From assembly GCA_025453495.1 (NCBI GenBank), contig JALOQM010000001.1, forward strand, positions 155,161 through 219,160: 64,000 nt of DNA. Direction: 5' to 3'. This stretch comes from Minisyncoccota bacterium (lineage in GTDB: Bacteria > Patescibacteriota > Minisyncoccia > Phycocordibacterales > UBA9973). A model generated the notes under the pieces. It was not told the DNA's origin. It did no database searches and saw only the letters and a program-made list of their open reading frames with translations. The position numbers and the translations under genes are program-made. Shown piece by piece: positions 3,089 through 37,048 of the stretch; the first letter of the stretch is position 1; each line of letters starts with the position of its first letter.

Positions 3089-3664
3089 TTAGACACTCTT
3101 TGCTGATCTCTTTTTTCTTTTTACATACCAAAGAATCATGACAAATGAGATAGTTGCTGTCGCGACCATAATACCAATGAGCGCAGTGAAACCAAATATC
3201 CCAGCGACAAAACCTCCGATAAATGCTGCGACACCTTGAAAGATGTCTTTGAGTGCTTCAAACTGCCCCCATTGATATGTCTCGACTGCATCTATTGTAT
3301 TGTCTTCAAGTTCAGCATCAAAAGCAGGGTCAGCAATTGCATTGCCAAGTGCAGCCAATACTTGCGCGATAAAGAGCGTTGTGATATTTGAGATAATAAA
3401 GTACGCTCCAATACCCACAAGCCAAATAAACCATCCGAAGGTAAGTAGCAAGAATCTATTTTTTTGACTCCATTGTAGTCGATGAATGAGCAGGGTTGAG
3501 ATACCTGAAATGATATAAAAGACCGCGACTGCGCCTGAAGCTTCAAGGATATCACCACCGATTTTTTGTACGAAGATGGCGTAAATTGGGATAATGATAC
3601 CTTCAGAGAAAGTTGATAGACCGTACGAGGAAATAAGAAGACGGAAAAAAAATTTTGATTTCAT
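3089..3664 (-). CDS. Polytopic membrane protein (MFS half-transporter-like, about 6 TM)
   Basis: 191 aa with several hydrophobic segments and a C-terminal KRKKRSAKS tail. Confidence 0.4.
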   Translation of the reverse strand: MKSKFFFRLLISSYGLSTFSEGIIIPIYAIFVQKIGGDILEASGAVAVFYIISGISTLLIHRLQWSQKNRFLLLTFGWFIWLVGIGAYFIISNITTLFIAQVLAALGNAIADPAFDAELEDNTIDAVETYQWGQFEALKDIFQGVAAFIGGFVAGIFGFTALIGIMVATATISFVMILWYVKRKKRSAKSV

Positions 3665-3825
3665 ATAAGTAGTATATATTACTTTTGCATGAGATATAAG
3701 ACATGAAATAAGATGTATAGATGCATTTTTTCATATTTTCAAATTAATACAAGTATGTTGTTGTAACGTATAGATTTTAGAATCACAAACAGTATATATT
3801 CGCAAATAAAAAAAGGAGGACAATA

Positions 3826-5076
3826 ATGCATGACCCGTATGCGGAATTTACTAAGCATGTTCTGAAAAATGGACTTGAAGTCCATTTTCAATCCTTGAAT
3901 TGTCCATGGATCAGAATAGAAATCGTCGTTCACAGTGGTGGACGAGAAGATCCAGTAGCGATACCTGGACTTGCTCACTTCGTAGAACACCTCGTTAGTC
4001 AAAATATTCCTAACAGAGAATTTAATCATGTAAGAGAGTTTTTTGAAAACTGCGGCGGTTCGGCTCATTTTGGTACCATAGACTATCTATCGACTCAATA
4101 TGGTTTCTTTATTCCAGCTGATCTCGCTATTCTCCGTGAGGTGCTCGAAATTTTTGGTTCAATGCTACTCCAAGCAAGAATTGAAAAGGACATTGAACGC
4201 GAGAGAGAAGTAATCTCACGTCAATTTAATGAAAAATATCCAATTGCCGAAATACTAGAGCTTCAAATAGATATGTACAGAACTCTCTTCAAAGGACATC
4301 GACTTGAAACATGGAATGCACCAATTGGTCGCCCGGAAGGATTTCTTTCGGCAACACAAGGTGACTTACAAAATTTCTACGATACACACTATGTTCCAGC
4401 AAATATGAGCCTAGTTATTATCAGTGGTATCAAAATTGCAGAGATGATAGCTGAACTTGAAAAGAGTCCGCTTGGAATCAAGAAAGATGGTAATCGGAAT
4501 CCAATTTCTAAGGGATGTAATAAGCCTTTAATTTCCGAGCAAAAAACAAGAACCCTAAAGTTTTCTGATTTTTCTAACCTTACGGTTAACCAAATAACAT
4601 ATAGAGTAACATGGGCTCTTCCACCTTCCTTTCACGGACAAGTCTGTAGAATTTTTAGTTTGGTTCTTGATGAGATTTTGTTTAGTGAAATTCGTGAAAA
4701 ACGAAGTCTTACCTACGATATCCATACTTCATATACGTCTTTTCAAGATATATACGAGTATACGATTGTTGGAAGAATTAATCCTGATGCCTCATCATAC
4801 ATTGAAGAACTTGTATATGAATGTATCTCGTTGGTTTCATCAAGACGTGAGTTATTTGATCGAAAATGTAAGTCACTCAAGCAGAGATGTTTTATGGTTG
4901 ATCTTGTTGGGTGGGAATTAGCTCGATTCGCAGCTGAAGATTTAATTGTCCGTCATCGAATTCTTCTAATACAGGAAGGTTTAGATGAATTGAATGGAGT
5001 GACATTTGACATGATTGTTGCATTTGCAACATTTCTTGCTTCTGCACCAAAGTACACATTTATCACGGTTCCATAA
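3826..5076 (+). CDS. M16 (pitrilysin/insulinase) family zinc peptidase
   Basis: HFVEHL inverted zinc-binding motif (HxxEH) near the N-terminus; 416 aa. Confidence 0.7.
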   Translation: MHDPYAEFTKHVLKNGLEVHFQSLNCPWIRIEIVVHSGGREDPVAIPGLAHFVEHLVSQNIPNREFNHVREFFENCGGSAHFGTIDYLSTQYGFFIPADLAILREVLEIFGSMLLQARIEKDIEREREVISRQFNEKYPIAEILELQIDMYRTLFKGHRLETWNAPIGRPEGFLSATQGDLQNFYDTHYVPANMSLVIISGIKIAEMIAELEKSPLGIKKDGNRNPISKGCNKPLISEQKTRTLKFSDFSNLTVNQITYRVTWALPPSFHGQVCRIFSLVLDEILFSEIREKRSLTYDIHTSYTSFQDIYEYTIVGRINPDASSYIEELVYECISLVSSRRELFDRKCKSLKQRCFMVDLVGWELARFAAEDLIVRHRILLIQEGLDELNGVTFDMIVAFATFLASAPKYTFITVP

Positions 5077-10536: not shown

Positions 10537-11571
10537 ATGAAACCAATTATATTTAAAGGTAAAGATAGTTTTGCAATCGGTACACAGTTCGGCAAGATAT
10601 ACAAAAAGAATGGGTTTTCAGTTGATTGGATAACTATCAATAAAACTATCTATAGTCAGCAGTTGAAAATATATAAAAAATACTTCCCTAGTTTCTTGGA
10701 CGAACTAAGAGGTATTGCCATCGCTGGTGGATATGACCTTGATATGTTGCAGTATTCGTTCATTGGTAATTCTGTTGAATGGATGATGAGCACAAACAGA
10801 TATACGGCAACAGCATGTTCAGTCTTTGGACTAAAAAAGGGTACTGACTTGTTTGTCGGCAGAAATTATGACTGGTTGCCTGAAACAGAGAAAGTATTCT
10901 GTGTATACAAGACATACAATCCCAAGAATTATGCGCATATTTCTGTTTCAGATATGAATATCTATAAAAAAAGAATAGCGCTTACTGATCAATCATATCT
11001 CCCTGTTGATGCACTCAATGAACATGGACTATATATTGGACTGACGGCTTCAATAAATAATGATTGGGCATATGGTCTATCAAGTATGCATATGATTAAA
11101 TTAGTCGCTGAAACTTGTAAGAACGTAGCGGAGGCAGTGAGATTGTTTAAAAAAGTACCACTAAATTGTGCAAAGAACTTTTTTATTGCTGATGCTCAAG
11201 GAAATATGGTTGTTGTTGAACATTTTTCTGGGCTTAATTTAAAAATAGTAAAGCCAAAAGACGACCTCTTGATACAAACAAACCACTACAATGATCCGGA
11301 GTTTTCCAAACAAGATAAAATACTTTTGTATAGGCCGACAAATACTACATTTCTTCGCTATTATGAAATCTTGCGCGAAGTAAATTTAAGAAAAAAGACC
11401 TTCAAGCAAAAACACATCCTTGAGATTTTAAATAAAGAGGGGTCACTTCTTTTGCAAAACACACCAACGGCGCGTTCGATATGGACATTGTCATTTAATA
11501 TGACAAAAAAACAGTATGTTTTACACTATGATCTGTTTGGTAAAAAAAAGTCACTAAGATTGAAGATTTAA
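10537..11571 (+). CDS. Ntn-hydrolase family protein (peptidase C45 / acyl-CoA:6-APA acyltransferase / choloylglycine hydrolase-like)
   Basis: 344 aa; candidate nucleophile Cys in ...TATACSVFGL...; ...VGRNYDW... segment; about 30% GC. Confidence 0.5.
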   Translation: MKPIIFKGKDSFAIGTQFGKIYKKNGFSVDWITINKTIYSQQLKIYKKYFPSFLDELRGIAIAGGYDLDMLQYSFIGNSVEWMMSTNRYTATACSVFGLKKGTDLFVGRNYDWLPETEKVFCVYKTYNPKNYAHISVSDMNIYKKRIALTDQSYLPVDALNEHGLYIGLTASINNDWAYGLSSMHMIKLVAETCKNVAEAVRLFKKVPLNCAKNFFIADAQGNMVVVEHFSGLNLKIVKPKDDLLIQTNHYNDPEFSKQDKILLYRPTNTTFLRYYEILREVNLRKKTFKQKHILEILNKEGSLLLQNTPTARSIWTLSFNMTKKQYVLHYDLFGKKKSLRLKI

Positions 11572-11988: not shown

Positions 11989-12312
11989 CTACAGAAGTTT
12001 GACCAGTTTTTGCTTTTTGTCCTTTATGTTGTGGCTTCTTTTTACGATTTTTTTTTGGTAGTGGAAAAACTGAAAAATAATAATGAGTGATAGCACAGAG
12101 CCAGGGGTCTGTGCTATCACTAGTAACAAATCTGGTTTAGTCCAGCCATAAATACTCCAAAAACTGTAGCTGCAAAACACAGTGCAAATGAGTGGTAGAG
12201 AAAGTCCATCGCAGTTTTTTCTACGATTATTTTTGACAATCTGTGCTGGAAGACCAAGCAGAGCGATTGCTAGCGACGCAGTAGTCGCAAGAATTCCGAT
12301 TACTGTAGACAT
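11989..12312 (-). CDS. SemiSWEET / PQ-loop family small sugar transporter (3-TM)
   Basis: 107 aa with three hydrophobic helices and an LPAQIVKNNRRKNCDGLSLPL segment matching the PQ-loop consensus. Confidence 0.55.
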   Translation of the reverse strand: MSTVIGILATTASLAIALLGLPAQIVKNNRRKNCDGLSLPLICTVFCSYSFWSIYGWTKPDLLLVIAQTPGSVLSLIIIFQFFHYQKKIVKRSHNIKDKKQKLVKLL

Positions 12313-12544: not shown

Positions 12545-12796
12545 TTATTTAGGAAACCAACGACACACGATATCAACAACCTCGATCAATTGAATTGCTG
12601 CAATTCCGACCCCGACCACTGTTAGCCAGAAAACTTTGTTTTGAAGCTTATCGTTCTTTTCGTTTGCTTCAGATATTGTCTGATTTAGTTTTCTTATGTC
12701 TGTTACAAGCAACTCAAGACGGTTGTTTGTTGTTGCTGCAAGGTCGCGATCTATTCCATTACCAGTATTTATGATGGGAAATTCATTATCAGCCAT
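12545..12796 (-). CDS. Hypothetical protein with C-terminal TM segment
   Basis: 83-aa ORF immediately followed by repeat A1. Confidence 0.35.
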   Translation of the reverse strand: MADNEFPIINTGNGIDRDLAATTNNRLELLVTDIRKLNQTISEANEKNDKLQNKVFWLTVVGVGIAAIQLIEVVDIVCRWFPK

Positions 12797-12799
12797 ATC

Positions 12800-13186
12800 C
12801 TATTCGGTGTCAGGAAATGTTCCTGTGTATTGGTTCCCAAAATCATCCATACAAGAAACTTTCCAATCATAGTAATCATAAGAGTAAATCGTATGCTTTT
12901 CCGAAGCACTTCTTGCATACGTAGTTTCACTACCGGGGATAGCTGCGTTACCGCCTATGTATGTCCAGATACATGTTGAAGAATTACCACTCGGGATGGA
13001 GAGCGAGTATCCCTCTTTGCCGTCATAAAAAGTACCCACCAGCACACCTGTTGCCTTAATGGTGGTATTGGTTTTTACATCAATAGTCGGATTTTTGCTC
13101 TGAGAATTTCCAAGCCAATAAGCTCCACCGCCAATAATTGCGATAACGATGAGTATTATCCAAATTTGTGAACCTCGATTTTCCAT
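12800..13186 (-). CDS. Hypothetical membrane-anchored protein
   Basis: 128 aa with an N-terminal TM (IWIILIVIAIIGGGAYWL); 3-nt gap to the downstream gene. Confidence 0.4.
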   Translation of the reverse strand: MENRGSQIWIILIVIAIIGGGAYWLGNSQSKNPTIDVKTNTTIKATGVLVGTFYDGKEGYSLSIPSGNSSTCIWTYIGGNAAIPGSETTYARSASEKHTIYSYDYYDWKVSCMDDFGNQYTGTFPDTE

Positions 13187-13189
13187 TGC

Positions 13190-13343
13190 CTAATTATAAC
13201 TTAAACCTACAAACTTAGGTACTCGGGGCATGCCGATAACAGATTCTTAGTGCGGAGAGCGTCGTGTTAGAACTAACCCCCGACAAGCCCAGTAAGGTCA
13301 TTTTAGCACTATTTCAGAATCTTAATCGACGCGTCTCGTGCGG
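13190..13343. repeat. Intergenic repeat, modules B plus C
   Basis: ACTCGGGGCATGCCGATAACAGATTCTTAGTGCGG matches module B at 15545. CCCCGACAAGCCCAGTAAGGTCATTTTAGCAC...GAATCTTAATCGAC matches module C at 17128. Confidence 0.6.
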
Positions 13344-14195
13344 CTAAGATACATCCTCAAAAGAATCGTAACAACTGCGACACAGCCGAGCAATGAGATC
13401 GGAAGCAACATATTTCCCTGGCATGTTTTCAATCATCTCCGGCACTTCAAATGTATAAACTGCAAGAATGAATAAAGGATGCTCACCTTTATAAACAATT
13501 CCAACATCATTGTATGCATTACTTCTTGTTCCTGTTTTGTGAGCAACTCTGGCTTCCACGGGCAGATGAAATGGTAACCGGTAATTGATTTGTTGCATAA
13601 GTAGAATTTTAAGTGCAAGATTGCACAATTCTGAATCAAGCCCTATATGAACCGCTTCCTTCTCGTCGATTGATCCTTTTAAGAACCAATGTATCATTGC
13701 TGCCGCTTCATTCGGGGTAGTGACATTGGTCGTTTCAACTCTTGCGGGAGTATGTGCGGATGCAGAAAGATTTCCATATCTTAACAAGGTCTGATTAAAA
13801 CCAAGAGATGTAATGTATTTATTCAGCCGATCTAATCCAATCATTTCAACAATCCCACCAGTACATGCATTATCGCTAATAGCTACCATGGCGACTAGCG
13901 CATCATGCAAAGATATGACGCATGCATTAGGATCGAAATAATGAAAAATTCCTGAATTGTTATCCTGGTATTTTTTCTGAATAAAGAAATGATCGGTCAG
14001 GTTCAGTTTTCCTGCTTTAATATCAGCAAGAACGCAGGCGAGTATGAAAATCTTTCTGGTGCTTGCGGAAGGCACAATCTCATCACCAAATCTATTGAAG
14101 AATCCTCCTGTCTGAAGATTAATAAACGAGAATCCTATATGGAACGGCTGTTCGTCACACAAGTCTTTCAGTCTCTGCTCAAGGGGTTTTTCCAT
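13344..14195 (-). CDS. Class A beta-lactamase-like serine hydrolase (PBP/beta-lactamase fold)
   Basis: 283 aa with STRKIF (SxxK), AISDNAC (SDN) and AHKTGT (KTG) motifs in the canonical order and spacing. Confidence 0.65.
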   Translation of the reverse strand: MEKPLEQRLKDLCDEQPFHIGFSFINLQTGGFFNRFGDEIVPSASTRKIFILACVLADIKAGKLNLTDHFFIQKKYQDNNSGIFHYFDPNACVISLHDALVAMVAISDNACTGGIVEMIGLDRLNKYITSLGFNQTLLRYGNLSASAHTPARVETTNVTTPNEAAAMIHWFLKGSIDEKEAVHIGLDSELCNLALKILLMQQINYRLPFHLPVEARVAHKTGTRSNAYNDVGIVYKGEHPLFILAVYTFEVPEMIENMPGKYVASDLIARLCRSCYDSFEDVS

Positions 14196-14235
14196 AGTGC
14201 TAATTATATCAGAGAAGCCTTGTTATAAGGACTTC

Positions 14236-14352
14236 GTGCTAGATGTTAGATGCGGGACACTCGGGTTAAGTACCAGAGTAGCGAGACACCGTAAGGGTAT
14301 TCTGGCAGAGTTTTGAGAACTGAAACGAGGTACATGGGTCGGGGTCTACTTT
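14236..14352. repeat. Intergenic repeat, family A, copy 2
   Basis: ACTCGGGTTAAGTACCAGAGTAGCGAGACACCGTAAGGGTATTCTGGCAGAGTTTTGAGAACTGAAACGAGGTACATGGGTCGGGG. Confidence 0.7.
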
Positions 14353-15486
14353 TCAATCTTGGTATATATCTGGAATGTTTTCACCCAAAAATGATTCTAC
14401 TAATAGTTTACCGATCATAATGCCATTAGTTAGCCCATTGCCACCATTTCCGAACAATTCATAATAGCCGTTTTGTTGCGTAATAAAAGGTCTGTTACGA
14501 GTTGGATATAGCAACAGCCCTGTCCATCGGTGCGAAACGGCAAGGTTCTCTTTAGAAGGATTTTGCACAAAAGCAAGGAATCGCTCTATTATTTTTTCTT
14601 CAGCATTCAGCAGGTCTTTTTCAGAAGGATTCAAGTTGATGCTTCCATTTAAGAATAAGCGGTTTCCAATCTTGCGGACAGCAATATAATTATTCCCCGT
14701 ATTCCAAAACATTCCACCTTTATCCCATGATAAGGCAGAAATATCTTCATCTGAAAGTGGCTCCGTAACAAGCGCAAGCTCTCTTTTAATGATTCCATAA
14801 TTTTCTGTAAGATCAGTTTTATTGCTTTCAATTGCAACAACTACTTTCTTTGCATGGATGATTCCATGAGGAGTTGTTACTGTGTGTACATCAAACGATA
14901 GTGCGGGAGTTTGCTCATATACCGAAAGACCTGCTTTTTCGGCAATTTCTGCAAGTCCCCGAACAAATTTGACCGGGTGTAAAGAACAGTCGTTTGCAAC
15001 AAGAAGAGTATCTTTTTTTGGTTCAAATTGAGGTATGATTTCTCCTATAAAATTCGCATGATGTCTTGCCTGTAGTTCGTCTTGCAGCGTTGATATATCC
15101 TGTGACTCCGAAGCAACATATAAACTTCCTGATCGAGAAAAATCACAAGCGATATTATTACTCTCTATTAAAGAAACAACATACTCTCTTGCATCTATAG
15201 TTCGCTGCCATGCTTCTATGGCTTGCTCTTTTCCGAACTGCTTTTCCGCTTCAACAAAATCAATCGCGAGACCTTCAACCACCATACCGCCATTTTTTCC
15301 TGCTGATCCCGATGCGATAACATCTCTTTCGATAAGTACGGTCTTGAATCCTGCTTTTACAGAATGATATGCGGCAGAAACCCCAGTTATTCCAGCACCG
15401 ATAACAACCACGTCTGTTTCTCTATCTTGTTTGAGAGATGGACGAGAAGTGTATGGGATATCAAGCCAATAGGAGATATTTTTCAT
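14353..15486 (-). CDS. FAD-dependent oxidoreductase (DAO/glycine oxidase-like)
   Basis: 377 aa; N-terminal VVVIGAGITGVSAAY Rossmann GxGxxG. Confidence 0.7.
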   Translation of the reverse strand: MKNISYWLDIPYTSRPSLKQDRETDVVVIGAGITGVSAAYHSVKAGFKTVLIERDVIASGSAGKNGGMVVEGLAIDFVEAEKQFGKEQAIEAWQRTIDAREYVVSLIESNNIACDFSRSGSLYVASESQDISTLQDELQARHHANFIGEIIPQFEPKKDTLLVANDCSLHPVKFVRGLAEIAEKAGLSVYEQTPALSFDVHTVTTPHGIIHAKKVVVAIESNKTDLTENYGIIKRELALVTEPLSDEDISALSWDKGGMFWNTGNNYIAVRKIGNRLFLNGSINLNPSEKDLLNAEEKIIERFLAFVQNPSKENLAVSHRWTGLLLYPTRNRPFITQQNGYYELFGNGGNGLTNGIMIGKLLVESFLGENIPDIYQD

Positions 15487-15499
15487 AAATTCATTTTAG

Positions 15500-15679
15500 C
15501 TTAAATCTCGATGTTTAGTAATCGGGTCGCCCCATCCACCTAACCACTCGGGTCATGCCGATAACAGGTTTTTAGTGCGGGCGACTCGGGTTCAGTACCA
15601 GAATGGTGAGGTGTTGTAAGGGTATTTTAGCGGAGTTTTGGAGATTAGAATGAGGTGTGTGGGTCGCTAATCGATTTCT
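15500..15679. repeat. Intergenic repeat, module B fused to family A copy 3
   Basis: AATCGGGTCGCC...CCACTCGGGTCATGCCGATAACAGGTTTTTAGTGCGGGCG (module B) then ACTCGGGTTCAGTACCAGAATGGTGAGGTGTTGTAAGGGTATTTTAGCGGAGTTTTGGAGATTAGAATGAGGTGTGTGGGTCGCTAATCG (module A). Confidence 0.7.
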
Positions 15680-16096
15680 TTAAAATTCGCGATATCTTGC
15701 GTTTCCCGGATGTCCGTACAGATGGATCAGTAATTCCTTATCTGAACCAAAATGTCCTTCAGTTAAGCTAACTTCTGACGTCTTTAAATCTGCTATGATC
15801 TTCTCTAGAACGATATGCGCATCTTTCGATACAGCAAGATTATTTGAGAGGTGAGCAAATGGACAAAGGAACACATTGTTATGTTTGGTGTCTTTACAGA
15901 ATTTAAGGATTTCCTGAGCAAGTTTAGAGGCCTTTTCAGGAGTATCACCCTTCTCAACCGTGATGAATACTAGAATACAATCATGAGAGGACTGCTTCTC
16001 ATCTAAAATATCTCCATACACAATATCTTTAGGACGAGTCGAGAGACCCGTGATAACGGCACCAAAATCTTTACAGTGAAACAAAATTGATCTCAT
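15680..16096 (-). CDS. Hypothetical protein (138 aa)
   Basis: An ORF between two repeats; no motif I can assign with confidence. Confidence 0.35.
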   Translation of the reverse strand: MRSILFHCKDFGAVITGLSTRPKDIVYGDILDEKQSSHDCILVFITVEKGDTPEKASKLAQEILKFCKDTKHNNVFLCPFAHLSNNLAVSKDAHIVLEKIIADLKTSEVSLTEGHFGSDKELLIHLYGHPGNARYREF

Positions 16097-16099
16097 TGG

Positions 16100-16253
16100 T
16101 TATTTACTGCCTAATCTTATTGCTTTAGGTATGTGGGTCTGCCCCACTTGGCGGGCCATGTGGGTTAAGTACCAGGGTGGTGAGTCCGCGTAAGGGTATT
16201 TGGAAAGGGTTTTGAGAATTGAAATGAGGTATGTGGGTCGGGGCACCTTTTAT
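16100..16253. repeat. Intergenic repeat, family A, copy 4 (with GGTATGTGGGTC at both ends)
   Basis: AGGTATGTGGGTCTGCCCCACTTGGCGGGCCATGTGGGTTAAGTACCAGGGTGGTGAGTCCGCGTAAGGGTATTTGGAAAGGGTTTTGAGAATTGAAATGAGGTATGTGGGTCGGGG. Confidence 0.7.
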
Positions 16254-17015
16254 TTATTGCATAAAATCACCAAACTTCACGATATCAGCTTTTGAGCCAA
16301 GAATATGAATCTTTTCTGGTGCTACTGTTAATTGACCGAAGGGTATATTTTCTACTCCAAATTTATTTACATAATTTTCAAGAAAAAAATCTCTTTCAGT
16401 TTCATTTTCCAGCTTAGCAATAACTTCTTCCTTAGAGAGTTTAGTATTTTTTAAGATTTCATTCAGACCTTGATTTTCAATATTTTCCCTCATTTTTTCT
16501 AATTGTTCAAATGAAAGTTTCTTGCCATCTTTATAACTATTTACATCGTAAAGTATTTGCAATAAAGCATCCTTGCCTTCCTTATACACTGATGATATAT
16601 CACTATGATTAATGCTTCCATCTTCAACAATTTGAATATTTCTCGTATTAACTAATACTGGAATTAATACTTTACCGTCTGATTCATAAGCATCATTCCC
16701 ATATGCGTTATATTTTCTTGCAAAAAATACAGCATTTCTTATAGAACAACCTTCTTTTTCTTTTGAGAAGCCATTAATTAATATGTTTTGAAGATTTTTA
16801 GCATCTGTTCCATGATATACAATATCTTTTATCTTGCTTTCAGGAAAAACAGTATCTAAGTATTCAGAATATTGTTCTTTAGTACCAATCTCAGCAAGTT
16901 CAGGATGTTGTTCAAATACGAAATCAACACCTTCTTTAATTTGAAGTTTCTCGATTTTGTTTTCGCCTGAATGCACATTTTCTATTTTTGGAATATTTTG
17001 AGGGAATCCTTCCAT
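16254..17015 (-). CDS. Hypothetical protein (253 aa)
   Basis: ORF with a Glu/Lys-rich C-terminal half; first gene of the same-strand array. Confidence 0.4.
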   Translation of the reverse strand: MEGFPQNIPKIENVHSGENKIEKLQIKEGVDFVFEQHPELAEIGTKEQYSEYLDTVFPESKIKDIVYHGTDAKNLQNILINGFSKEKEGCSIRNAVFFARKYNAYGNDAYESDGKVLIPVLVNTRNIQIVEDGSINHSDISSVYKEGKDALLQILYDVNSYKDGKKLSFEQLEKMRENIENQGLNEILKNTKLSKEEVIAKLENETERDFFLENYVNKFGVENIPFGQLTVAPEKIHILGSKADIVKFGDFMQ

Positions 17016-17039
17016 GCTTCTATTTTAACTTAAATATCT

Positions 17040-17205
17040 TTTTCTAAGTAATCGGGTCGATCTACTCTCATAAGCCTATGAATCACTCCGATACTTAGTT
17101 CTTTTGGCGGGCTACTCGGGTATGGTACCCCGACCGTCAACCCCAGTAAAGCTTTTCTGACGTTTCCGAATCGACCCGGGCGATGTTTGCGGGTCGGGGT
17201 CACCT
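17040..17205. repeat. Intergenic repeat, A-type start plus module C with an 8-bp inverted repeat
   Basis: AATCGGGTCGATC...GGCGGGCTACTCGGGTATGGTACCCCGACCGTCAACCCCAGTAAAGCTTTTCTGAC...GAATCGACCCGGGCGATGTTTGCGGGTCGGGGTC; CCCCGACC and GGTCGGGG flank about 45 nt. Confidence 0.6.
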
Positions 17206-17266: not shown

Positions 17267-18016
17267 TTGAGATATAATCAGGGCATGACAGTTGGCGAAT
17301 TGGTATATCTGGAAGCACTTAAGAATGGATACAAACCCAAACTTCCCGAGGGCGTTATTTCAACGTTACAAAAGACATTGGAATCATTTCAGAGGGTCTC
17401 CGAAGATATGCGCGGACCAATACAGATGGCAGCTCAAATGGCTGAGCGCATGCAACCGCAGATAGAAACCACGAGAAAGATGGCGTTTCCTAGAATGGCT
17501 GAGTTTAGTGAATCCATTTCTAGAATCTCTTCCCTCTATGACAAAGAGGAAGAATTCGTCATCCCCGCATTTACACGACCGATTCAAGAAGTACGAATCG
17601 TGAACCCCGAGGATATCGCTATAACATCGACCAAGAGTGAGAGAGATTTTGTAATTGCCTCATATCCTCTTCCGAAGAACGCGGTATGGGAATCCCTCGA
17701 CATCCAGTTCATCGATGGGCATTTCGTTAAGGTTTCGTATCCGAACTTGGAATCAAAGAAGTTCAATTATAAGGATATGGGCTTCGTGAACATGAAGACG
17801 ACGAACCCCGATCTGAAATGGAGACTCCTCTACGCAATTGCAGAAAACGACGGAGCTTTAACTACCACGAAATGGGATAGAGGGTTCGGAAGGAACGTAA
17901 AATACGAACTCAACGAGGGACTCAAGCGATTCTTCGGTATGGCGACGAACCCCATTCCTCACTACACCAAGAGAGATGGCTACAAGCCGCTATTTTCTAT
18001 CAGACGCGAAAGATAG
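17267..18016 (+). CDS. Hypothetical protein (249 aa)
   Basis: ORF with a TATAAT-like -10 just upstream (GAGATATAATCAGGGC ATG). Confidence 0.4.
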   Translation: MRYNQGMTVGELVYLEALKNGYKPKLPEGVISTLQKTLESFQRVSEDMRGPIQMAAQMAERMQPQIETTRKMAFPRMAEFSESISRISSLYDKEEEFVIPAFTRPIQEVRIVNPEDIAITSTKSERDFVIASYPLPKNAVWESLDIQFIDGHFVKVSYPNLESKKFNYKDMGFVNMKTTNPDLKWRLLYAIAENDGALTTTKWDRGFGRNVKYELNEGLKRFFGMATNPIPHYTKRDGYKPLFSIRRER

Positions 18017-18190: not shown

Positions 18191-19486
18191 ATGGCAAAAG
18201 ACAAGATCACATGGTCGCCCGCCACTCGCAGGCTGGTAGACCTCACCAAGAACGGATACAATCCACGCAAGCTAAGCGAGAACGAACGCAGGGATTTGGA
18301 GAAGTCCGTACAAGAATTCGGCACGGTCGTCCCGATAATCCTCAACATCGGCACGCGCGCCAACACCATCATTGGCGGCGAGCAACGCGTTAAAGTATAC
18401 GCCAATCTTGGCATCGACGAAGTCGAGTGCATGGTGCCATCCCGCGAGCTGACGCTCGACGAGGAGCGCGAACTCAATCTCCGCCTTAACAAGAATACCG
18501 GCTCGTGGGACGAGGAACTCCTCAAGGACTTCGACATGAGCGTGCTTCTTGGTGTCGGCTTCGGTGACGACGAGCTTCAGAACCTCTTTGACGATGTCGA
18601 CGTAGTCGATGACGACTACAATCTCGAGAAAGCACTCAAGGAGACGATCACACCGAAAGTGAAATCGGGAGAAATCTGGGAACTCGGCAAACACCGGTTG
18701 CTTGTCGGCGACTCGACCGACGGCGAATCGGTACAGAAGCTCATGGCGGGAGACTTGGCAGACGTCGTCTACTGCGATAGCCCGTACAACATCGGCCTCG
18801 ACTACTCCAAGGGAGTCAGCAATAAAGAAAAATACCAAGGTTCATATTCCAGCAAGGACGACTCCAAGAAAGACAGCGACTTCATGACCTTCTTGGACAA
18901 GAGCATGGATGTCGCGAAATCGGTCAGCAAGAAAGATGCCCACTTCTTCTACTGGTGCGATTCTTCATACGTCGGAATGGTGCAGAGCTTGTATGGCAAG
19001 CACAAGATAGATGCGAAGCGCGTCTGTCTCTGGATCAAGAACAACCAAAACCCGACGCACAAGATCGCCTTCAACAAAGTGTACGAGCCATGCGTGTATG
19101 GCACGATCGGCAAGCCGTACCTGAACACAGGAATGCACAATGCCAACGAGATACTTAATCAGGAAGTGACGACTGGCAATCAAGTCCATGACGAGATACT
19201 CGACATGATCGATATCTGGATCGAGAAGCGCGACAGTGCCCAGTCATATCAGCACCCGACACAGAAACCCGTAACCCTCAACGAGAAGCCACTCAAGCGA
19301 TGCAGCGCACCGCTCCACATTGTCTTTTCCGGATTTGCCGGAAGCGGCAGTGACCTGATCGCCTGCGAGGAACTCGGTCGTGCGTGGCGCGGAGTCGAGA
19401 AGGATCTCATATTCGCAACCATTGTGATCGACCGATGGGAGAAATTTACCAACCAGAAAGCAGTGAAAATCCATGAAGGTAACTAA
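18191..19486 (+). CDS. ParB-like nuclease N-terminal domain fused to an N4/N6 DNA methyltransferase (beta-class)
   Basis: 431 aa; N-terminal ParB/Srx-like segment (...GYNPRKLSENERRDLEKSVQEFG...); methyltransferase motif IV DSPYN, HPTQKP, and motif I FAGSGS; 55% GC versus about 40% in flanking DNA. Confidence 0.75.
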   Translation: MAKDKITWSPATRRLVDLTKNGYNPRKLSENERRDLEKSVQEFGTVVPIILNIGTRANTIIGGEQRVKVYANLGIDEVECMVPSRELTLDEERELNLRLNKNTGSWDEELLKDFDMSVLLGVGFGDDELQNLFDDVDVVDDDYNLEKALKETITPKVKSGEIWELGKHRLLVGDSTDGESVQKLMAGDLADVVYCDSPYNIGLDYSKGVSNKEKYQGSYSSKDDSKKDSDFMTFLDKSMDVAKSVSKKDAHFFYWCDSSYVGMVQSLYGKHKIDAKRVCLWIKNNQNPTHKIAFNKVYEPCVYGTIGKPYLNTGMHNANEILNQEVTTGNQVHDEILDMIDIWIEKRDSAQSYQHPTQKPVTLNEKPLKRCSAPLHIVFSGFAGSGSDLIACEELGRAWRGVEKDLIFATIVIDRWEKFTNQKAVKIHEGN

Positions 19487-20222
19487 CGGAGACATCTTCA
19501 AAGTCGGCGACCACATCATCGCCTGCGGCGACTCGCTCGACAGAGCATTCGTCGGCAAGGTCATCGGTCATAACAAGGTGCGAGCGGTCGTCAGTGATCC
19601 TCCCTATGGGATTGCGTATGTCGAGAACAAGCAGGGATTGGCGAAGATCAGCGCGGATGAAACGAAGGTAATCGCCAACGACCATCTCCAGAGTGAGGAG
19701 GAATACGAGAACTTCACGCGCGGATATCTCGGCGCGGTCATTCCGTACCTTACGGAATACAACGCCGTGTATATCTTCAATGCTGATGCAATGTTCCCGA
19801 GTCTTCGCGCAGGCATGAAAGTGGCGGGCTTCTACTACAGCCAGATGATCATCTGGCTCAAGAACCAGCCCGTCATGAGTCGCAAGGACTACTTGGCAAT
19901 GTACGAACTCATCGCCTACGGCTGGTTCGGCAAGCACAAGATGGAGCGATCAAAGGCGCGGAATGTGATCTACCATCCAAGACCGACAAAATCGAGACTG
20001 CACCCGACGCAAAAGCCGGTGGGACTTCTGCGGAAGATCATTCCGAACTCCACGAAAGTCGGCGACGTCGTCTACGATCCCTTCCTCGGAAGCGGATCAA
20101 CTGCCGTTGCCTGTGAGCACTTAGGTCGAAAGTGCATCGGCATCGAACTTGATGAGGCGTATGTGGCAATTGCGCTCAAGCGGCTCGAGAAGCTCACTGG
20201 CGAAAAGGCTGTGAAGGTATAA
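19473..20222 (+). CDS. DNA methyltransferase (N6-adenine/N4-cytosine, beta-class)
   Basis: 249 aa; SDPPYG (motif IV), HPTQKP, FLGSGST (motif I); overlaps the upstream gene by 14 nt. Confidence 0.8.
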   Translation: MKVTNGDIFKVGDHIIACGDSLDRAFVGKVIGHNKVRAVVSDPPYGIAYVENKQGLAKISADETKVIANDHLQSEEEYENFTRGYLGAVIPYLTEYNAVYIFNADAMFPSLRAGMKVAGFYYSQMIIWLKNQPVMSRKDYLAMYELIAYGWFGKHKMERSKARNVIYHPRPTKSRLHPTQKPVGLLRKIIPNSTKVGDVVYDPFLGSGSTAVACEHLGRKCIGIELDEAYVAIALKRLEKLTGEKAVKV

Positions 20223-22295: not shown

Positions 22296-22715
22296 TTATC
22301 CAATTACAATATTTTCTCCATTACCAAATTCCATTTCTTTATACATAATCTCGCCTGATTCATTCTTCTTATAAGGAAGTGTGGCGGAAATTACTTTATT
22401 TTCAGCATCCTCCAGATGAATAGAAATTGCACCATCAGTATTTCCTGCATATAGATTCGCATTAAAAGCAATACCGAAAGCATGTAAATCATGTTCTTGC
22501 TTTTTTACTTGGAAACTCTGCATGAGAGAATCAATGACTTCTTTTGGGGTGGGATGTTTTTCTAAAAAATCATTTTCAACGGCAACTATTTCATCTTTTG
22601 AGTTTAAATACATACCGAACGGATAAAATTCACCATGTTGGATTAGCATTTTCTGAGCAAAAGGAACTAGAGCGTTTAGTAACTTATCAAGTTGTGTGCG
22701 TTCTTTTTCATTCAT
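22296..22715 (-). CDS. Candidate immunity protein for the RHS toxin
   Basis: 139-aa ORF overlapping the stop of the 2042-aa toxin gene by 4 nt, the typical toxin/immunity arrangement. Confidence 0.45.
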   Translation of the reverse strand: MNEKERTQLDKLLNALVPFAQKMLIQHGEFYPFGMYLNSKDEIVAVENDFLEKHPTPKEVIDSLMQSFQVKKQEHDLHAFGIAFNANLYAGNTDGAISIHLEDAENKVISATLPYKKNESGEIMYKEMEFGNGENIVIG

Positions 22716-22718
22716 GTT

Positions 22719-25700
22719 TTATTCACTTGTGCCAGAAAGGGCATTACCAATATTTTTCAATGTCGACTTTACACCTCCTAATGCGTTTTGCAAAGGGCCT
22801 GAGAGACGAGTATCCGGGCGAACGTGTAAATCAAGACTATAGTTTGCGTCTTTCGCATAACTTACAAAATCTTTCATTTGGTTTGTGTAATTCAGACGTG
22901 CAACATTTTTAACTTCCATGAGAGATTTTTTTGAGTGATCCAATCCATCGGGTATACGATAGCTAGCAGTTCCAGTAGCGGATTCTATTCTTTCAGTATT
23001 TTTTACAATACCGCTGGCAAGTTCGCCCGCTCTTCCTTTCGCTGCATTTTCGGCAATATCACCTAATACTTTACCTTTTGGCACTTCTCCTGCGGTAACA
23101 GCGCCAAGTATTGCCATAGGATAGTTTCCTTGCTTTGCATCAGTAATAGCTTGAGAAAGTCCGTATTGGCCAACAGGCGTTGTAAGTGATTGCAAGAATG
23201 ATGTAATTTGTGGAGCATTCATTGCGATATACGCCGCAGCAAAAATAAGTTCTCCTGCAAATTTACCACTTGCATCGCTCATCGTAATCGGATTATTCCT
23301 TCCGTATGAATAGCTGTTCAGTGACTGCGGATCGCTCAGGATACTCGTCATATCCCTGCCCGACAGTGCTTTTGTCGGTTTTTCGTCACCAATAGTTAAA
23401 AATACCGGATCCTGAGAAATAAACTTCCCAACATTCCCCTTGTAGTAACGCGCATTCAAGTAATCGAGTCCTGTATCGTTGTCATGAATCTGCCCCACAT
23501 ACTTTCTCTGTTCATTATACGCCCCAGACGAGATGCGGGATTCGCCGAATGGGTAATAATCGAGTTGCTGAGAAATTGCACCTGAGGCGTCAGTGACGGC
23601 GGTAGTTGAACCGAGGTGATCGGTATGGATATAATACGGCGTCACTGTGACCGTCGGATTAGTAACAGTTTCGATCGTGGCGACAAGGGTGCTTCCTGCA
23701 TAGACTTGCTTGGTCTTCTTCGTACCGTCATCGTTGTAATACTTGTTCGGGTATGAGATGTCAGTCGTGCCTGTAACATAGCGGACGCGGTTACCTTCGT
23801 GGTCGTACCAGTAGTTTGCGGTCACTGAGCCGTCAGTACTCGAAACAAGCTGATCGCGGTAGTTCCAGGTATGCGTGAACGTGCCGTCTGACGTCAGATT
23901 GCCGTCATTGTCGTACGTGCGAGTAATACTGTTAATTTTTGTCGCAGCATGCGGATTCGCATACCCGGTGCCGGCATAGACGTATGCGCCCGCTGGACCA
24001 GAGAGCAGATTGCCGAGCGCATCGTAAGCGAATGAATGCGTGTAGTCACCGCCGCTTGCCGTGCCGGTAATGACAGCGTCAGTCAGACGATAGAGTGCGT
24101 CATATGAATACGTAGCGGTCTTTGCAGTATCAGTATCGGATGCATCATCAAGTTCGGTGATATTGCCGACCGGATCATACACATATGCGAAATCCTGCAC
24201 ATGACGGGTCGAATTCGTCGTCAAACGATTGGTTAGGCGGTAGAGCGCTGAAGCAGCATAGGTGTTCATCGTCGTCACGCCGTTCGCATCATTCTGCGTC
24301 TGGACCTGATCCGTCGGACTGTAGTCGAAGTTAGTAATGAGCGCAGTGAACGTGCGCGCAGACGGTTCCCTACGATCAACTGATTCGAGCAAACCGGCAG
24401 TATTGTAGGTGTAGCGAATCTCGGACATATCGGGATAGACGACTGAGGATATATTCCCCTGTCGATCGTAGAACGTGGACGTCGTATAGGTGTTTCCGTT
24501 GATGACCTTGATTTCGTTGACGACCGTGCCTCTCGAATTGTAGAGGTAGGATGTGTCCGCTCCGAGAAGCATGGTCACTGAGCAGAGTTTGCCCGTACCA
24601 TTCGTGCAGCTTGAGTACGAATACGCAATATCCGTGTCGGTGGTTGCAGTGTTGTCTTCCGAAGTGACCTGATTGACGTCGTTATAGGCGTAGTTTGTCG
24701 TCAGTGCGTTCGGACTTACTGTCTGAATAATGTTTCCTGCATCGTCATACGTATATGTCCATATGCCATAGGTTGCATCAGACACAGCGTGCGTGTCTTG
24801 CGCAGTCAGACGACGATCGAGGCCGTCATACGTGAAATTGCGGACGTTCCCGAGCGCATCGGTTATCTTCGTAAGTTTGCCGTTCAAATTCCATTCGTAG
24901 TTCGTGGTATAAGCGCTTGCAGTCGCATAGAATTCGTCGACAGCGGACAAGTTCTCATATGCGTCGTGATAATAACGCTTCATGTTTCCTGCTGGATCAG
25001 TGACAGTGGTCATCCAGTCGTCGTAGGCATTCGTCGTCGTACCAACTGCGTTCGTCGATGTGAGTACGCGACCAATTGGGTCATATGCGTACGTAGTGTA
25101 GAGCGCCGTAGTGGTTGTCGGTGATGTACGAGCAGTACCCGTGCTTGTATAGCGGAGTGATTCTTTCAAGGTCTTGCCGCGAGCATCATATGCCTTATCG
25201 CTCACGTTGAAAGTATTTGATGCTTCCGCTTCTTTGCGCTCCTGGATCAGGCGACCGAGGCCGTCGAAGTACTGATAGGTATCTGCCGTTGTCGAGGTGT
25301 CGAGATAGTCGGTGCGCTGTACTTTTACCGCACCGGAAGTGTCGGTATATGCATATGCCGTTTTTGCAACTGGAGAATACGGTGAAGTACTATCGGGAAT
25401 TTTTTCAGTGAGCACGCGATCAAGGCCGTCATAAACAGTTTGGTAGACGAAGCTGTTCTGATCGGTCACCTGCTTCGGCTTGCCGAGCGAGTAGTCATAG
25501 ACATACTGCGTCGTATGTGAGAGCGGGTCGGTAACAGTTGTTGGGTAGAGATTATAGGTATCGTATGAATACGAGGTTACCTTTCCACGCGGATCGGTAT
25601 CAGAAGTGACAAGACCATATGAGTTATACGCTTTCTGACTATTAATGTAGGTTGTCGACGCTTTCCAATCTTCAACCTTAGTCTGATTACCTTTGTTTAC

Positions 25701-28700
25701 CGATCCATATGAAAGCGTATCGTAATAGTATTTCGACTCTTTGACGGTGGTGGAAGATGCGTCAGTCACTGTGCTGATCTTTGGCACCACCACTCGGGTC
25801 GTCGTGTTTGCCGCATACACATTTGTCGTGGTGCGCTTGTCGGAACCGGTATCAGTGAATGAGCCGTCTGATGCCACTGCATTTACCCTACCCCATTCGG
25901 TCTTCGTCAGGAGCGAGCCGTCCGTGTTGTCATAGGTATATTCGGTCGCAGTATCGGCATGATCTGAATCGCCATCATACGTCAGCACAGTCTGGCGCGC
26001 GAGCTTCACGAAATCGTGGTCAGTGCCGATGTTGTAGTGATCCCACTTATTGACCGTCAGGCGATAGAGATTGTTCGAGCTGTCACGTTCTTCGACACGG
26101 TACGGCTGACCTATTTTTGCAGGGATATCGTTGTATTCACCGTTTGATGTATCAGTGCCATTACCCTGGTGGTAAAAGGTCTTCGTGACATTGCCGACTT
26201 CATCGGTTGTCGTGACGATATTGAAGCCAGCGAGCGTTCTATGTCCGTCTGAGTAGTACTGATACTTGCCGTCCTGATACGAGTACTGTCTCGTTCCGGT
26301 CGTGCCGAATGCGTCGTTCGTCGTGATGTCTTTGACGACTGTTATGGACTGGGACGGACTTCGGGTTATCGGATTCTTGTCATTAATAGGCTGTTCCTTA
26401 TATGTAATGGACATCGAGCCGCCCGCAGGAGCAGTAATGGTTGAAAGATAATCGGATTTTGAACCGGTATTGAGCCAGACGGCATTTGGGTTCGTGATGT
26501 TTGTACTGTTGTTATAGGCAAATATCCAGTCTGGTAGTCCGTCGTTATTTAGATCAGAAAGTCTTGTGTCATAATCAAATCCTACCTGATTTCCATTTGG
26601 ATAGGTTGGCATGGTCCAGCTTGCAAGTAGCCAACCTGTCCCAGTACTAAGCCAAACCTTGTTAGGATTGATAGTGTTTGTGTTGTTGTTATAAGCATTT
26701 ATCCAATCTGGCAGATTATCTCCATTAATATCTGTAAGCTGGGTATCGTAGGCAAATCCGACATGATTACCATTTGTGTATGTAGGCATGGTCCAAGAAA
26801 CTGCTGTCCACCCAATTCCTGTATTCAGCCAGACAGTATTTGGACTGGCTGCTGTTGGGGAATTGTTGTCATATCCATGAATAAAGTCAACAAGACCATC
26901 GGCGTTTACGTCAATAAGTTTGTTCGTATAATGAAATCCAACCTGATTGCCTGTTAGATAAGTCGGCATCGTCCAACTTGCTGATGTCCAGCCAGAGCCG
27001 GTATTCAACCATACTGCATTCGGATTCGTGGTACTCGTATTATTATTAAAGGCATAAATAAAATCTGGAAGAATATCTCCGTTTATATCCACGAGTTGCG
27101 TGTTTGTATGAAACCCGACCTGATTGCCGCTTGGATATAGCGGCATGTTCCACGATGCGTTCGACCAGCCCGATCCAGTGTTAAGCCAGACCGTATTTGG
27201 GTTTACTGTGCTTGTATTGTTGTTGTAAGCATAGATCCAGTCAGGTAAACCATCTCCATTGAGATCGATCAACTGCGTATTTACTGTATGAAAACCTACC
27301 TGGTTACCACTTGGATAAGTCGGTATAGTCCATGATGCTGATGACCAACCCGATCCATTATTGAGCCAGACCGCATTCGGATTCGCGGTGCTTGTATTGT
27401 TATTATAAGCATAGATCCAATCGGGTAGACCATCGCCATTGAGATCAATCAACTGGGTATTCAAAGTATGAAAGCCCACTTGCCCGCCAGTTGGAAATGT
27501 CGGAAACGTCCATGACGCGAGCGACCAGCCAGATCCGGTATTAAGCCACACAGCGTTTGGATTCGTGGTGCTCGTATTGTTATTGAGCGCATACACGAAG
27601 TCCGGCAAATTATCACCGTTTACATCCACAAGCTGCGTTGCGGAAGCGAACCCTACTTGTCGGAGGTCCGGATAGACAGGCATCGTCCATGACGCGAGCG
27701 ACCATTCATCATCCACAGTCTGATAATCGAATGACATCGCCGGGAGTACCGTCGGCGTGCCGCTTTCGTCATAACCCGTTTCGGTAATTGAAGAAAGGAG
27801 CGAACGATTCTGGTTGTGTCCAGGTAGGTATACAAGGTCGTACTTGCGAGTATTTGTACCGTTAATTTTTGCAACAATGCTCGTAACAAGCGAAGCCGGA
27901 GCGACTGAGAAAGCAGGATTATAGACAGTCACGACATCGGGGCGCGAGCCTAACGTAAAGTCGATTTCGAAAATTCCGTCAGTGGTTCCAAAACCAGTGT
28001 AAAAAATCTTCGATGGATAAATCTGCCCTGCGCTTTTGGTATATTCATAGCGGACGAAGTTATCATTCGTATCGCGCGTCTCTTCAAGCATCCACTTATA
28101 GATATTTCCCGAGTTGTCTTGGCGAGCTTGGGCGTTTGCACCGAAGGTATATTTCACACCCTTTTTATCGGTTACCACCCATCCGTTGGAGACGCGTTCG
28201 TATCGCAAGAAATCTCCCTTTTCAGAACGAGGTGCGTAAAGATTTGATCCGAGCGGAACAAGCTCCCCAGAGAGAGATGACGAAAACACATCGCCTGTCG
28301 TATAGAGGTCTTCCGTACCGGTGCGATTGACGCGCTCGATGTATGGAATATTGACGGACCAGCCGTAGCCGACGACAGAGTCGTTAACTTGATTCTCGCT
28401 ATTGTACATAAGCGAGAGATCAGGCGTCATGTCATTTCTGCCTGGTGGAACCTGAATCTTGTAGGTATGGACGAATGCCCCTGTCAGGTTGTCGATTTCA
28501 GGAGAAAGCAATCCTTTTGAATCCTGCGGCGGAAGCGGATCAGGATCTACTTCTGGCGCTTGAGGGGCTGGCGGCTCTATCGGCGGAGCTGCTTGCTGGT
28601 TTTCTTCAGAAACCTGAGTTTCAGTTTCTTCGCTAACGGTTGGCGTCTCAGTCTGTACTTCTGGCTCAGGAGTTATAACAGTTTCCTGAGTTGCTTCCGT

Positions 28701-30385: not shown

Positions 30386-30708
30386 ATTTTTCTAGCGGGT
30401 TTTTAATTTGGCGGGAATAACAAAAGACTCCCCGCCATCGCGATGGAAACCTTTCGGCCCCACCCGTACCCGTTTCCAGGTACGACCCGCTAGAGTGACT
30501 CTGACGAGGAGTCTTTTATTCTCTAGCGGGATTTTCGACCATATCCTTGGCGCAAACCAAGGGGTTAGGTCTCCTATTAAGTTGTAAAGCGATTATACCC
30601 TTTTTATAGGGTCGTCGCATCCTAGCTCGGATTAGGGAGTTTGTGTAGCGTACTTACCAACAAAGTGGATTAAGCGGACTGGACTTCGTAGGCCTTCTGA
30701 GTCATCCA
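30386..30708. ncRNA. GC-rich highly structured intergenic region (candidate cis-regulatory RNA or ncRNA)
   Basis: Three copies of TCTAGCGGG (two direct, one inverted as ACCCGCTAGAG), giving two mutually exclusive 10-bp pairings, one followed by ATTTT. A further 10-bp pairing AAAAGACTCC/GGAGTCTTTT. Local hairpins GGCGGG..CCCGCC, GTACC..GGTAC, CCTTGG..CCAAGG. Much higher GC than the flanks. Confidence 0.4.
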
Positions 30709-31945: not shown

Positions 31946-32169
31946 GTAAGTTGATCGCTTTAAGCATTCGCAAGGCAACTATATCATGCGTAGACAGGAC
32001 TAAAAAGACGATGGAATTTCTTGATTTTTAGGCATTTCGGTTACCAACAGCTACCACTCGGGACGCTCTGGACTCCTAAAAGGCATTGCGTCATTCATGT
32101 AGGTGTATGAACTATACACAAACACAAGCGCCATTAGGGACGACGGCCAAAGTAGTCGTTCCAATCAAA

Positions 32170-34420: not shown

Positions 34421-34425
34421 AGTTT

Positions 34426-35121: not shown

Positions 35122-35123
35122 AT

Positions 35124-36830: not shown

Positions 36831-36960
36831 CTGTATACTTAAAAGTCAATAACGTAAAAGAGCGACACTGATCGCTCTTTTTGCTACAACCATGAAGCCT
36901 TGTGGGTCGCGCTACCTCCTTAGGCAGTCGGGATACAAAACTAACAGGTTGTCAATGCGG

Positions 36961-37048
36961 AGGAGGTGAGATTCGAACTCACGGACCACGTAAATGGTCT
37001 CCTGTTTTCAAGACAGGTGCCTTCAACCACTCAGCCACTCCTCCGTAT
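36961..37048 (-). tRNA. tRNA-Ser (anticodon TGA), class II with long variable arm
   Basis: Minus strand GGAGGAGTGGCTGAGTGGTTGAAGGCACCTGTCTTGAAAACAGGAGACCATTTACGTGGTCCGTGAGTTCGAATCTCACCTCCTCCG. Confidence 0.85.

Follow-up and report, generated by a model that had tools for sequence, protein, structure and literature searches.

A Beta-Lactamase-Fold Serine Hydrolase Gene in a Repeat-Delimited Array of a Candidate Phyla Radiation Bacterium

Introduction

Is a gene that carries the catalytic motifs of class A beta-lactamases a resistance gene, and do the repeats on both sides of it mark a mobile cassette? Both questions are raised by a locus of a Minisyncoccota bacterium (assembly GCA_025453495.1, contig JALOQM010000001.1). 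The gene, here called the bla-like gene, lies in a 64,000-nucleotide (nt) stretch of this contig, hereafter the window, within an array of genes that are delimited by copies of a ~93-nt repeat, hereafter the element. An earlier note on this DNA had regarded the gene as integron cargo, and had offered a true beta-lactamase, a DD-peptidase and an esterase as options for its product. According to the present analysis, the bla-like protein is probably a soluble cytoplasmic serine acyl-hydrolase of peptides or amides, with the fold of class A beta-lactamases and of the penicillin-binding protein PBP-A, and not a resistance enzyme; the array resembles an integron in its layout only.

Gene, Fold, and Catalytic Motifs

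The bla-like gene is real and its product has the class A beta-lactamase fold, as the earlier note had proposed; family PF13354 (Beta-lactamase2) is matched with 150.6 bits against a gathering score of 22, over model positions 1-214 of 214. The gene and its motifs are located as follows.

13344-14195, minus strand: bla-like gene, encoding a 283-amino-acid class A beta-lactamase-fold serine hydrolase (PF13354), without signal peptide and without Glu166 equivalent
14052-14063, minus strand: SxxK codons S45-T-R-K48, with Ser as the nucleophile and Lys as the general base
13869-13877, minus strand: SDN codons S107-D108-N109
13530-13538, minus strand: KTG codons K220-T221-G222, on strand beta3
13713-13778, minus strand: omega-loop region, codons for residues 140-161

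The motifs SxxK, SDN and KTG stand in the right order (S45-T-R-K48, S107-D-N109, and K220-T-G222), which agrees with the earlier reading of the sequence, and S45-T-R-K48 aligns with STFK of TEM-1. In a family alignment of 86 members, the acylation residues are retained in 82-86 of the 86 relatives, while Arg47 of S-T-R-K is retained in 82. The acylation machinery, consisting of Ser45, Lys48, Ser107-Asp-Asn109 and Lys220-Thr-Gly222, is intact, and because the catalytic residues are so widely retained, the bla-like protein can be argued to be an active enzyme.

The NCBI database holds an identical protein, named class A beta-lactamase-related serine hydrolase, on a 251-kb contig of a metagenome-assembled genome (MAG) of a Candidatus Pacebacteria bacterium, which supports the expected host from the Candidate Phyla Radiation (CPR); the identical protein is present in further assemblies too. 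The family comprises 375 clusters (50% identity) at E<=1e-30 among 1.84 billion representatives, with members from CPR-like contigs, Tectimicrobiota, Chloroflexota, and Acetobacteraceae, and relatives are carried by 113 plasmid records, mostly of Rhizobium. No relative was found among 50,697 phage records, and PADLOC gave no match for the protein. The bla-like gene is an ordinary additional member of a known fold family, and its exact protein has already been named in NCBI.

Omega Loop, Profile Scores, and Export

The bla-like protein shares its fold and the three acylation motifs with the Ambler class A enzymes (TEM-1, CTX-M, PER; NF033103), but it lacks Glu166, Asn170 and a signal peptide, and scores below half of the NCBIfam cutoff. 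The score for bla_class_A (NF033103) is 86.4 bits against a curated cutoff of 200; the subclass A2 model gives 67.8 bits against a cutoff of 320, and all named bla families score well under their NCBIfam cutoffs. The best-scoring named profile family is bla_class_A.

The conserved omega-loop glutamate, which activates the deacylating water in class A beta-lactamases, is absent from the bla-like protein as judged by alignment. An hhalign comparison with TEM-1 places Asn142 at Glu166 and His148 at Asn170, so the Glu166 equivalent that the earlier note had singled out was looked for and not found; the same comparison anchors the motifs correctly (STRK/STFK, SDN/SDN, and HKTG/DKSG), which serves as a check on the TEM-1 query. 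In the family, column 142 is occupied by Ile, Val or Leu and followed by Pro in 68 of the 86 members, and this Ile-Pro consensus resembles the Leu-Pro of PBP-A. Glu154 is the sole acidic residue in the omega-loop region (140-161); column 154, the only acidic column nearby, holds Glu or Asp in 49/86 members (57%), which is not expected of a general base, since that residue would be invariant.

The protein is also predicted to be cytoplasmic, without export signal. Neither a signal peptide nor a lipobox is present at the N-terminus (MEKPLEQRLKDL), where residues 5-14 already form helix alpha1 of the fold in the structure model, and the ORF (open reading frame) has no possible upstream extension. 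Among the 86 relatives, a signal-like N-terminus occurs in only one, and 81 have fewer than 20 residues ahead of helix alpha1.

Likely Function of the Protein

A cytoplasmic peptide or amide hydrolase is the most likely function, because the catalytic glutamate and the export signal are both absent. In two Rhizobium plasmids, a homologue (35% identity) is encoded within the operon of a peptide ABC (ATP-binding cassette) importer, flanked by the genes for its ATPase and its peptide-binding protein, with an M20 peptidase/amidohydrolase adjoining downstream; other relatives adjoin amidohydrolases, an amidase, and an MR/MLE enzyme. PBP-A (Tll2115) of Thermosynechococcus elongatus (PDB 2j7v, 2j8y, 2j9o), a DD-peptidase with class A beta-lactamase fold, is one of the best structural matches. 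The earlier note had held that best profile hits to low-molecular-weight penicillin-binding proteins or esterases without the class A omega loop would speak against a beta-lactamase, and the finding goes part of the way: a DD-peptidase without Glu166 stands high among the structures.

PBP-A and the bla-like protein are alike in that a class A fold is combined with a missing omega-loop glutamate. The absence of this glutamate is the main difference between PBP-A, which is a DD-carboxypeptidase, and class A enzymes, and its addition raised the beta-lactamase activity of PBP-A 90-fold (PMC11189452). PBP-A is membrane-anchored through a 92-residue anchor domain, periplasmic, and acts on amidated muropeptides (PMC11189452). 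In contrast, the bla-like protein has no anchor, signal or N-terminal extension, carries S-T-R-K with a near-invariant Arg where PBP-A has S-T-I-K, and possesses a longer omega region. Two other solved proteins, 4ewf (deposited as a beta-lactamase, from Sphaerobacter thermophilus) and 6v4w (Chitinophaga pinensis), show 23-25% identity to the bla-like protein; they were deposited without described activity, and hence provide no functional anchor.

In the proposed mechanism, Ser45 would form an acyl-enzyme with a peptide or amide substrate, and this acyl-enzyme would be released slowly or via another route, as in PBP-A-type DD-peptidases. Small peptides that the cell imports or recycles would be the likely substrates, and these may contain D-amino acids or originate from murein. 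The cell would gain no protection from beta-lactams, which might at most be bound.

Several points weigh against this reading. The two alignment methods disagree on the residue at the Glu166 position, since HMMER aligns Thr149 with Leu158, the PBP-A counterpart of Glu166, although neither gives a glutamate. The bla-like protein has Asn-Leu-Ser at 142-144, whereas the consensus of its own family is Ile-Pro-Pro, and residues 141-150 of the omega loop are the single low-confidence stretch of the structure model (mean model confidence, pLDDT, 57). Glu154, which is aligned with the Glu of E-x-x-N in 4ewf, could in principle reach the active site. Some in vitro beta-lactamase activity was reported for two CPR class A-like proteins (PMC9145738). 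Furthermore, hydrolase activity is a prediction for every family member, the bla-like protein included; the suggested substrate class comes from the operon context of homologues of 35% identity, and the close CPR-like homologues (59-74% identity) have no conserved neighbours.

Next to the peptide or amide hydrolase, the best surviving alternative is a cytoplasmic esterase or amidase that uses the same acyl-serine chemistry on a non-peptide small molecule, such as a lactam, a lactone or an acylated metabolite. It is rather unlikely, since the clearest conserved context is the peptide ABC importer with the M20 peptidase, and the solved structures nearest to the protein are those of PBP-A and class A-type enzymes, not of esterases. 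A non-catalytic ligand-binding or regulatory protein, comparable to BlaB of Streptomyces cacaoi (2wuq), which is a cytoplasmic regulatory protein of beta-lactamase fold, is improbable. Unlike the case of BlaB, the catalytic residues are strictly conserved in the bla-like family and no bla regulon is linked; the acylation residues are nearly all conserved across 86 diverse relatives, as in an enzyme, and no regulator gene is linked to the bla-like gene. The reading as a true class A beta-lactamase that travels on a mobile resistance cassette and protects the CPR cell or its host could be argued from the presence of all three motifs, the name of the best NCBIfam match and the in vitro activity reported for CPR class A-like proteins, but it is very improbable in view of the 86 bits against a cutoff of 200, the absence of both Glu166 and Asn170, the missing signal peptide (without which the enzyme would not encounter beta-lactams at the cell wall), the lack of any relative in the phage collection searched, the plasmid relatives annotated merely as serine hydrolases within peptide-uptake operons, and an array without integron integrase and attC sites. 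Among the options of the earlier note, the true beta-lactamase has thus become the least likely, while the DD-peptidase and the esterase/amidase remain candidates.

The Element in the Window

The flanking repeats suspected earlier were found as six same-strand copies of the ~93-nt element, which bracket the bla-like gene. They lie between 12.4 and 17.2 kb, and an 18-copy profile detects none elsewhere in the 64 kb. Four copies (12448, 14252, 15577, and 16151) were identified by repeat search and nhmmer, and those at 17107-17199 and 13262-13341 were added by the 18-copy profile.

14252-14344, minus strand: type-1 element, 8 nt past the stop codon of the FAD-oxidoreductase gene, ending 57 nt before the bla-like ATG
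13262-13341, minus strand: type-2 (divergent) element, E=5e-4, in the intergenic region 13187-13343, which begins directly after the bla-like stop codon
12448-12540, minus strand: type-1 element, 4 nt past the stop codon of an 83-amino-acid ORF
15577-15669, minus strand: type-1 element, 10 nt past the stop codon of the gene for a threonyl-tRNA synthetase (ThrRS) editing domain
16151-16243, minus strand: type-1 element, 10 nt past the stop codon of a 253-amino-acid ORF
17107-17199, minus strand: divergent head element, E=3e-4, between the first array gene and a divergently transcribed 243-amino-acid ORF

The copy downstream of the bla-like gene is therefore of a second subtype (type-2). On its coding strand the element is rich in C and poor in G (means of 36% C and 15% G), and its conserved blocks are of 11 nt at most. 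No inverted repeats were found in the copies, no intrinsic terminator was found in the intergenic regions of the array, and no relevant Rfam match was obtained, either at the gathering threshold or at E<=5 over 11.9-17.4 kb. Five intergenic repeats folded as DNA (one of them on both strands) gave z-scores of -0.56 to +0.69, and six repeats folded as RNA gave -0.06 to -1.56. RNAalifold predicted a weak three-way junction from 6 copies; this was gone with 18 copies, whose consensus fold has -1.67 kcal/mol and zero covarying pairs.

Two other explanations of the repeats were considered and rejected. A small peptide encoded by the repeat (frame RPTYLIS..KYPY..WY in several copies) does not fit: within the variable blocks, first, second and third codon positions all vary; in two copies the frame is immediately preceded by a stop and lacks a start; and the G-poor strand is stop-free in every frame. 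Variable and template repeats of a diversity-generating retroelement were dismissed, because the repeats lie outside ORFs and inspection of the annotated neighbours revealed no reverse transcriptase.

The Element in Other Genomes

In exact-pattern scans, two MAGs of Candidatus Saccharibacteria and seven metagenome contigs contained the element, and the literature searched contained no description of it. The element is CPR-specific and common to genomes of the Pacebacteria and Saccharibacteria types. The loci outside the window, denoted by L and a number, carry it at the following sites.

L009, 6148-6240: single copy behind an ordinary gene
L010, 944-1534: array
L011, 59-2086: array
L012, 1185-1834: array
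L013, 2410-2502: single copy behind an ordinary gene
L015, 1834-2534: array
L016, 36-776: array
L017, 1837-1929: single copy behind an ordinary gene

These arrays consist of 2-3 copies spaced 500-1300 bp apart. Eleven of the 18 copies start no more than 25 nt past a same-strand stop codon, and the head copy of each array is its most divergent one. The cargo is unrelated between loci, and includes a HEAT-repeat protein, an LD-carboxypeptidase, and an acetyltransferase. The LD-carboxypeptidase (Peptidase_S66; L013, 1593-2405, plus strand), with the element directly 3' of it, adds a second hydrolase of the cell-wall-peptide type to the cargo linked to the element.

L010 and L011 show 77% DNA identity over 1.25 kb from the last repeat, and left of it only the repeats are shared. 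Two type-2 copies are also present in L001, where the 74%-identical bla-like homologue is encoded; the type-2 copy of the window is 75% identical to the repeat at 4566-4637 of L001, ~300 nt downstream of the homologue's gene. A ParB-N/N6_N4 methylase gene lies directly beside element arrays in three contigs (the window; L010, 2749-4768; and L012, 2693-3979), with 42-43% amino acid identity. A second methylase gene follows in the window and in L010 (53% amino acid identity), while the L012 contig ends after the ParB-N/methylase gene. Apart from the ParB-N/methylase and the second methylase, no gene pair was found to recur next to element arrays of different genomes; the ORF between array and methylases is different in every locus. 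In L011, an rve-domain (integrase core) transposase is encoded at 3561-4361 (plus strand), ~1.5 kb from the array head, past a conserved 297-amino-acid ORF.

Integron, Cassette System, or Terminator

The repeat-delimited array is real and has an integron-like topology, but it is not an integron, because an adjacent integrase, attC hairpins and covariation are all absent; the proposal that the bla-like gene is integron cargo was not upheld. Like integron arrays (IntI, attI, and ORF-attC units), it has same-strand units of one or two ORFs with a repeat directly 3' of each, a divergent first repeat at the head, cargo that varies between genomes, and a conserved flank. It differs from them in having no IntI and no attC hairpin, in showing no R/L boxes in the aligned copies, in repeats that are conserved in sequence instead of structure, and in that at least some units have their own -10 box. 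No recombinase domain was detected from ~3.3 to 24 kb of the window and no tyrosine recombinase at or near the array head; a large serine recombinase, encoded 15 kb away at 32086-33438, is the only one in the window. The attC hairpin was rejected, as the folding z-scores of DNA and RNA were all between +0.69 and -1.56 and the weak fold of six copies was lost with 18.

Short conserved intergenic sequences that bracket exchangeable single genes are known from the PeSL cassettes of T4-type phages and from the minimal mobile elements and NIMEs of Neisseria. All of these work via homologous recombination at promoter/stem-loop or flanking-gene sequences. The present array is unlike these, with conserved blocks of 11 nt or less, no stem-loop, and an element that was not found in viral contigs.

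Two readings of the element are live: it may be a recombination boundary, or a 3'-end/termination signal that travels with each acquired gene. If it were a boundary, the array would be a true site-specific cassette system, an analogue of the integron with recombination at the 93-nt elements and with the bla-like gene as a mobile cassette. We consider this possible, though doubtful. It accords with six copies all on one strand and one or two ORFs between them, with the 11 copies close behind stop codons and the divergent head copy beside a divergent flank, with the finding of the element around unrelated cargo in seven metagenome contigs and in Saccharibacteria MAGs, with the break of L010/L011 homology at the last repeat, and with the proximity of the bla-like gene and the type-2 element in two genomes. 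However, no recombinase is encoded at the array head, where the ORFs are not homologous between loci, and the only one in the window is the distant serine recombinase; the elements have no hairpin, inverted repeats or covariation; single copies stand behind ordinary genes in L009, L013 and L017; and in L001 the element lies ~300 nt from the bla-like gene. The C-rich, G-poor, unstructured strand, together with the lack of intrinsic terminators, fits a termination or 3'-end element equally well. In composition and position the element resembles a Rho-utilisation site, and conserved blocks common to CPR classes suggest recognition by a specific factor.

A bolder proposal would place the bla-like gene, as one unit, in a cassette system that is specific to CPR and has not been described before, in which hairpin-less ~93-nt elements after stop codons bound single accessory genes, and these are exchanged between Pacebacteria- and Saccharibacteria-type genomes, beside a ParB-N/DNA-methylase platform, by a mechanism unrelated to IntI/attC. 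We offer this as a speculative and, on present evidence, unlikely possibility.

Array Genes, Promoters, and Flanks

Besides the bla-like gene, which forms a single-gene unit, the array and its flank contain the following genes and promoter-like site.

14353-15486, minus strand: FAD-dependent amine oxidoreductase (Pfam DAO family), array gene upstream of the bla-like gene
15680-16096, minus strand: free-standing archaeal-type ThrRS editing domain of 138 amino acids (PF08915, E=7.5e-21), array gene
16254-17015, minus strand: first array gene, 253 amino acids, with weak ADP-ribosyltransferase-like matches below Pfam cutoffs
12545-13186, minus strand: two-gene array unit, 128 and 83 amino acids, without family match
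11989-12312, minus strand: last array gene, SemiSWEET/PQ-loop transporter, with an ordinary hairpin and T-run behind it instead of an element copy
18191-20222, plus strand: ParB-N/N6_N4 DNA methylase and second methylase, flanking the array
14203-14211, minus strand: perfect extended -10 box TGATATAAT, read from the sequence, ending 7 nt upstream of the bla-like ATG

The last of these features suggests that the bla-like gene has its own promoter and that its mRNA may be leaderless or near-leaderless; a two-hexamer promoter scan listed no site in the intergenic region upstream of the gene. The ORFs at 12800-13186 and 16254-17015 likewise have TATAAT and TAAAAT boxes (~13193-13198 and ~17022-17027, both minus strand), 6 nt upstream of their ATGs. 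Such -10 boxes near the ATGs suggest that array genes may have leaderless transcripts.

The ThrRS editing domain, which is similar to Ser-tRNA(Thr) hydrolases, is here an array unit in a bacterial CPR genome. A D-amino-acid operon of bla-like, DAO and DTD-like genes was considered and rejected, as all matches of the oxidoreductase are to generic amine oxidases and lie far below cutoffs, and none of the array neighbours recurs beside bla-like homologues. The divergent 243-amino-acid ORF at the head (17285-18016) has no match in Pfam, PHROG, PADLOC or PDB; a recombinase was rejected for it, since it has no family match and the ORFs at that position in L010, L011 and L012 are not homologous. A defence island was likewise discarded, as PADLOC matched the methylases only. 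Phage origin was not supported either: there was no protein match in the 50,697 phage records, and the element was absent from IMG/VR (two patterns) and from eight viral loci encoding ParB-methylase relatives.

Convergent to the array end, at 10537-11571 (plus strand), is a gene for a C45-family autoproteolytic acyltransferase/hydrolase, whose Pfam name is acyl-CoA:6-aminopenicillanic acid acyltransferase. That a penicillin-type name turns up so close to a gene with beta-lactamase fold is most likely a chance effect of naming.

Other Features of the Window

A 2042-amino-acid RHS/YD-repeat protein is encoded at 22296-28847 (minus strand), with SpvB, TEN_YD-shell and a C-terminal Tox-REase-7 nuclease domain; ~180-nt tandem repeats lie inside its gene at 26461-27704, and a 139-amino-acid ORF without family, possibly an immunity protein, follows it. 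A match to LOOT RNA (Rfam RF03000; 81.5 bits, gathering score 46.4) was detected at 30446-30571 (minus strand); the ORFs on both sides of it are unannotated, and the serine recombinase gene is ~1.5 kb away. The large serine recombinase at 32086-33438 (plus strand) has Resolvase, Recombinase and Zn-ribbon domains. Its neighbours at 33419-36179 and 36192-36812 (both minus strand) comprise two metallo-beta-lactamase-fold ORFs, one of them a weak match, and a LexA gene, and a tRNA-Ser is located near this segment at 36957-37044. The segment from ~12 to 33 kb of the window might be one integrated element.

Significance

The motifs SxxK, SDN and KTG, together with a Pfam name that contains beta-lactamase, are insufficient to call a resistance gene. 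A previous study reported 1,606 putative class A sequences in CPR genomes (PMC9145738). CPR resistome counts built on such motifs probably include many cytoplasmic hydrolases without Glu166. For an organism that scavenges building blocks, a cytoplasmic PBP-A-like enzyme would be a reasonable candidate for degrading host-derived peptides. The element is more noteworthy than the bla-like gene. Should it serve CPR lineages as a shared signal for recombination or termination, it would provide a handle on how accessory genes are gained and expressed in these reduced genomes.
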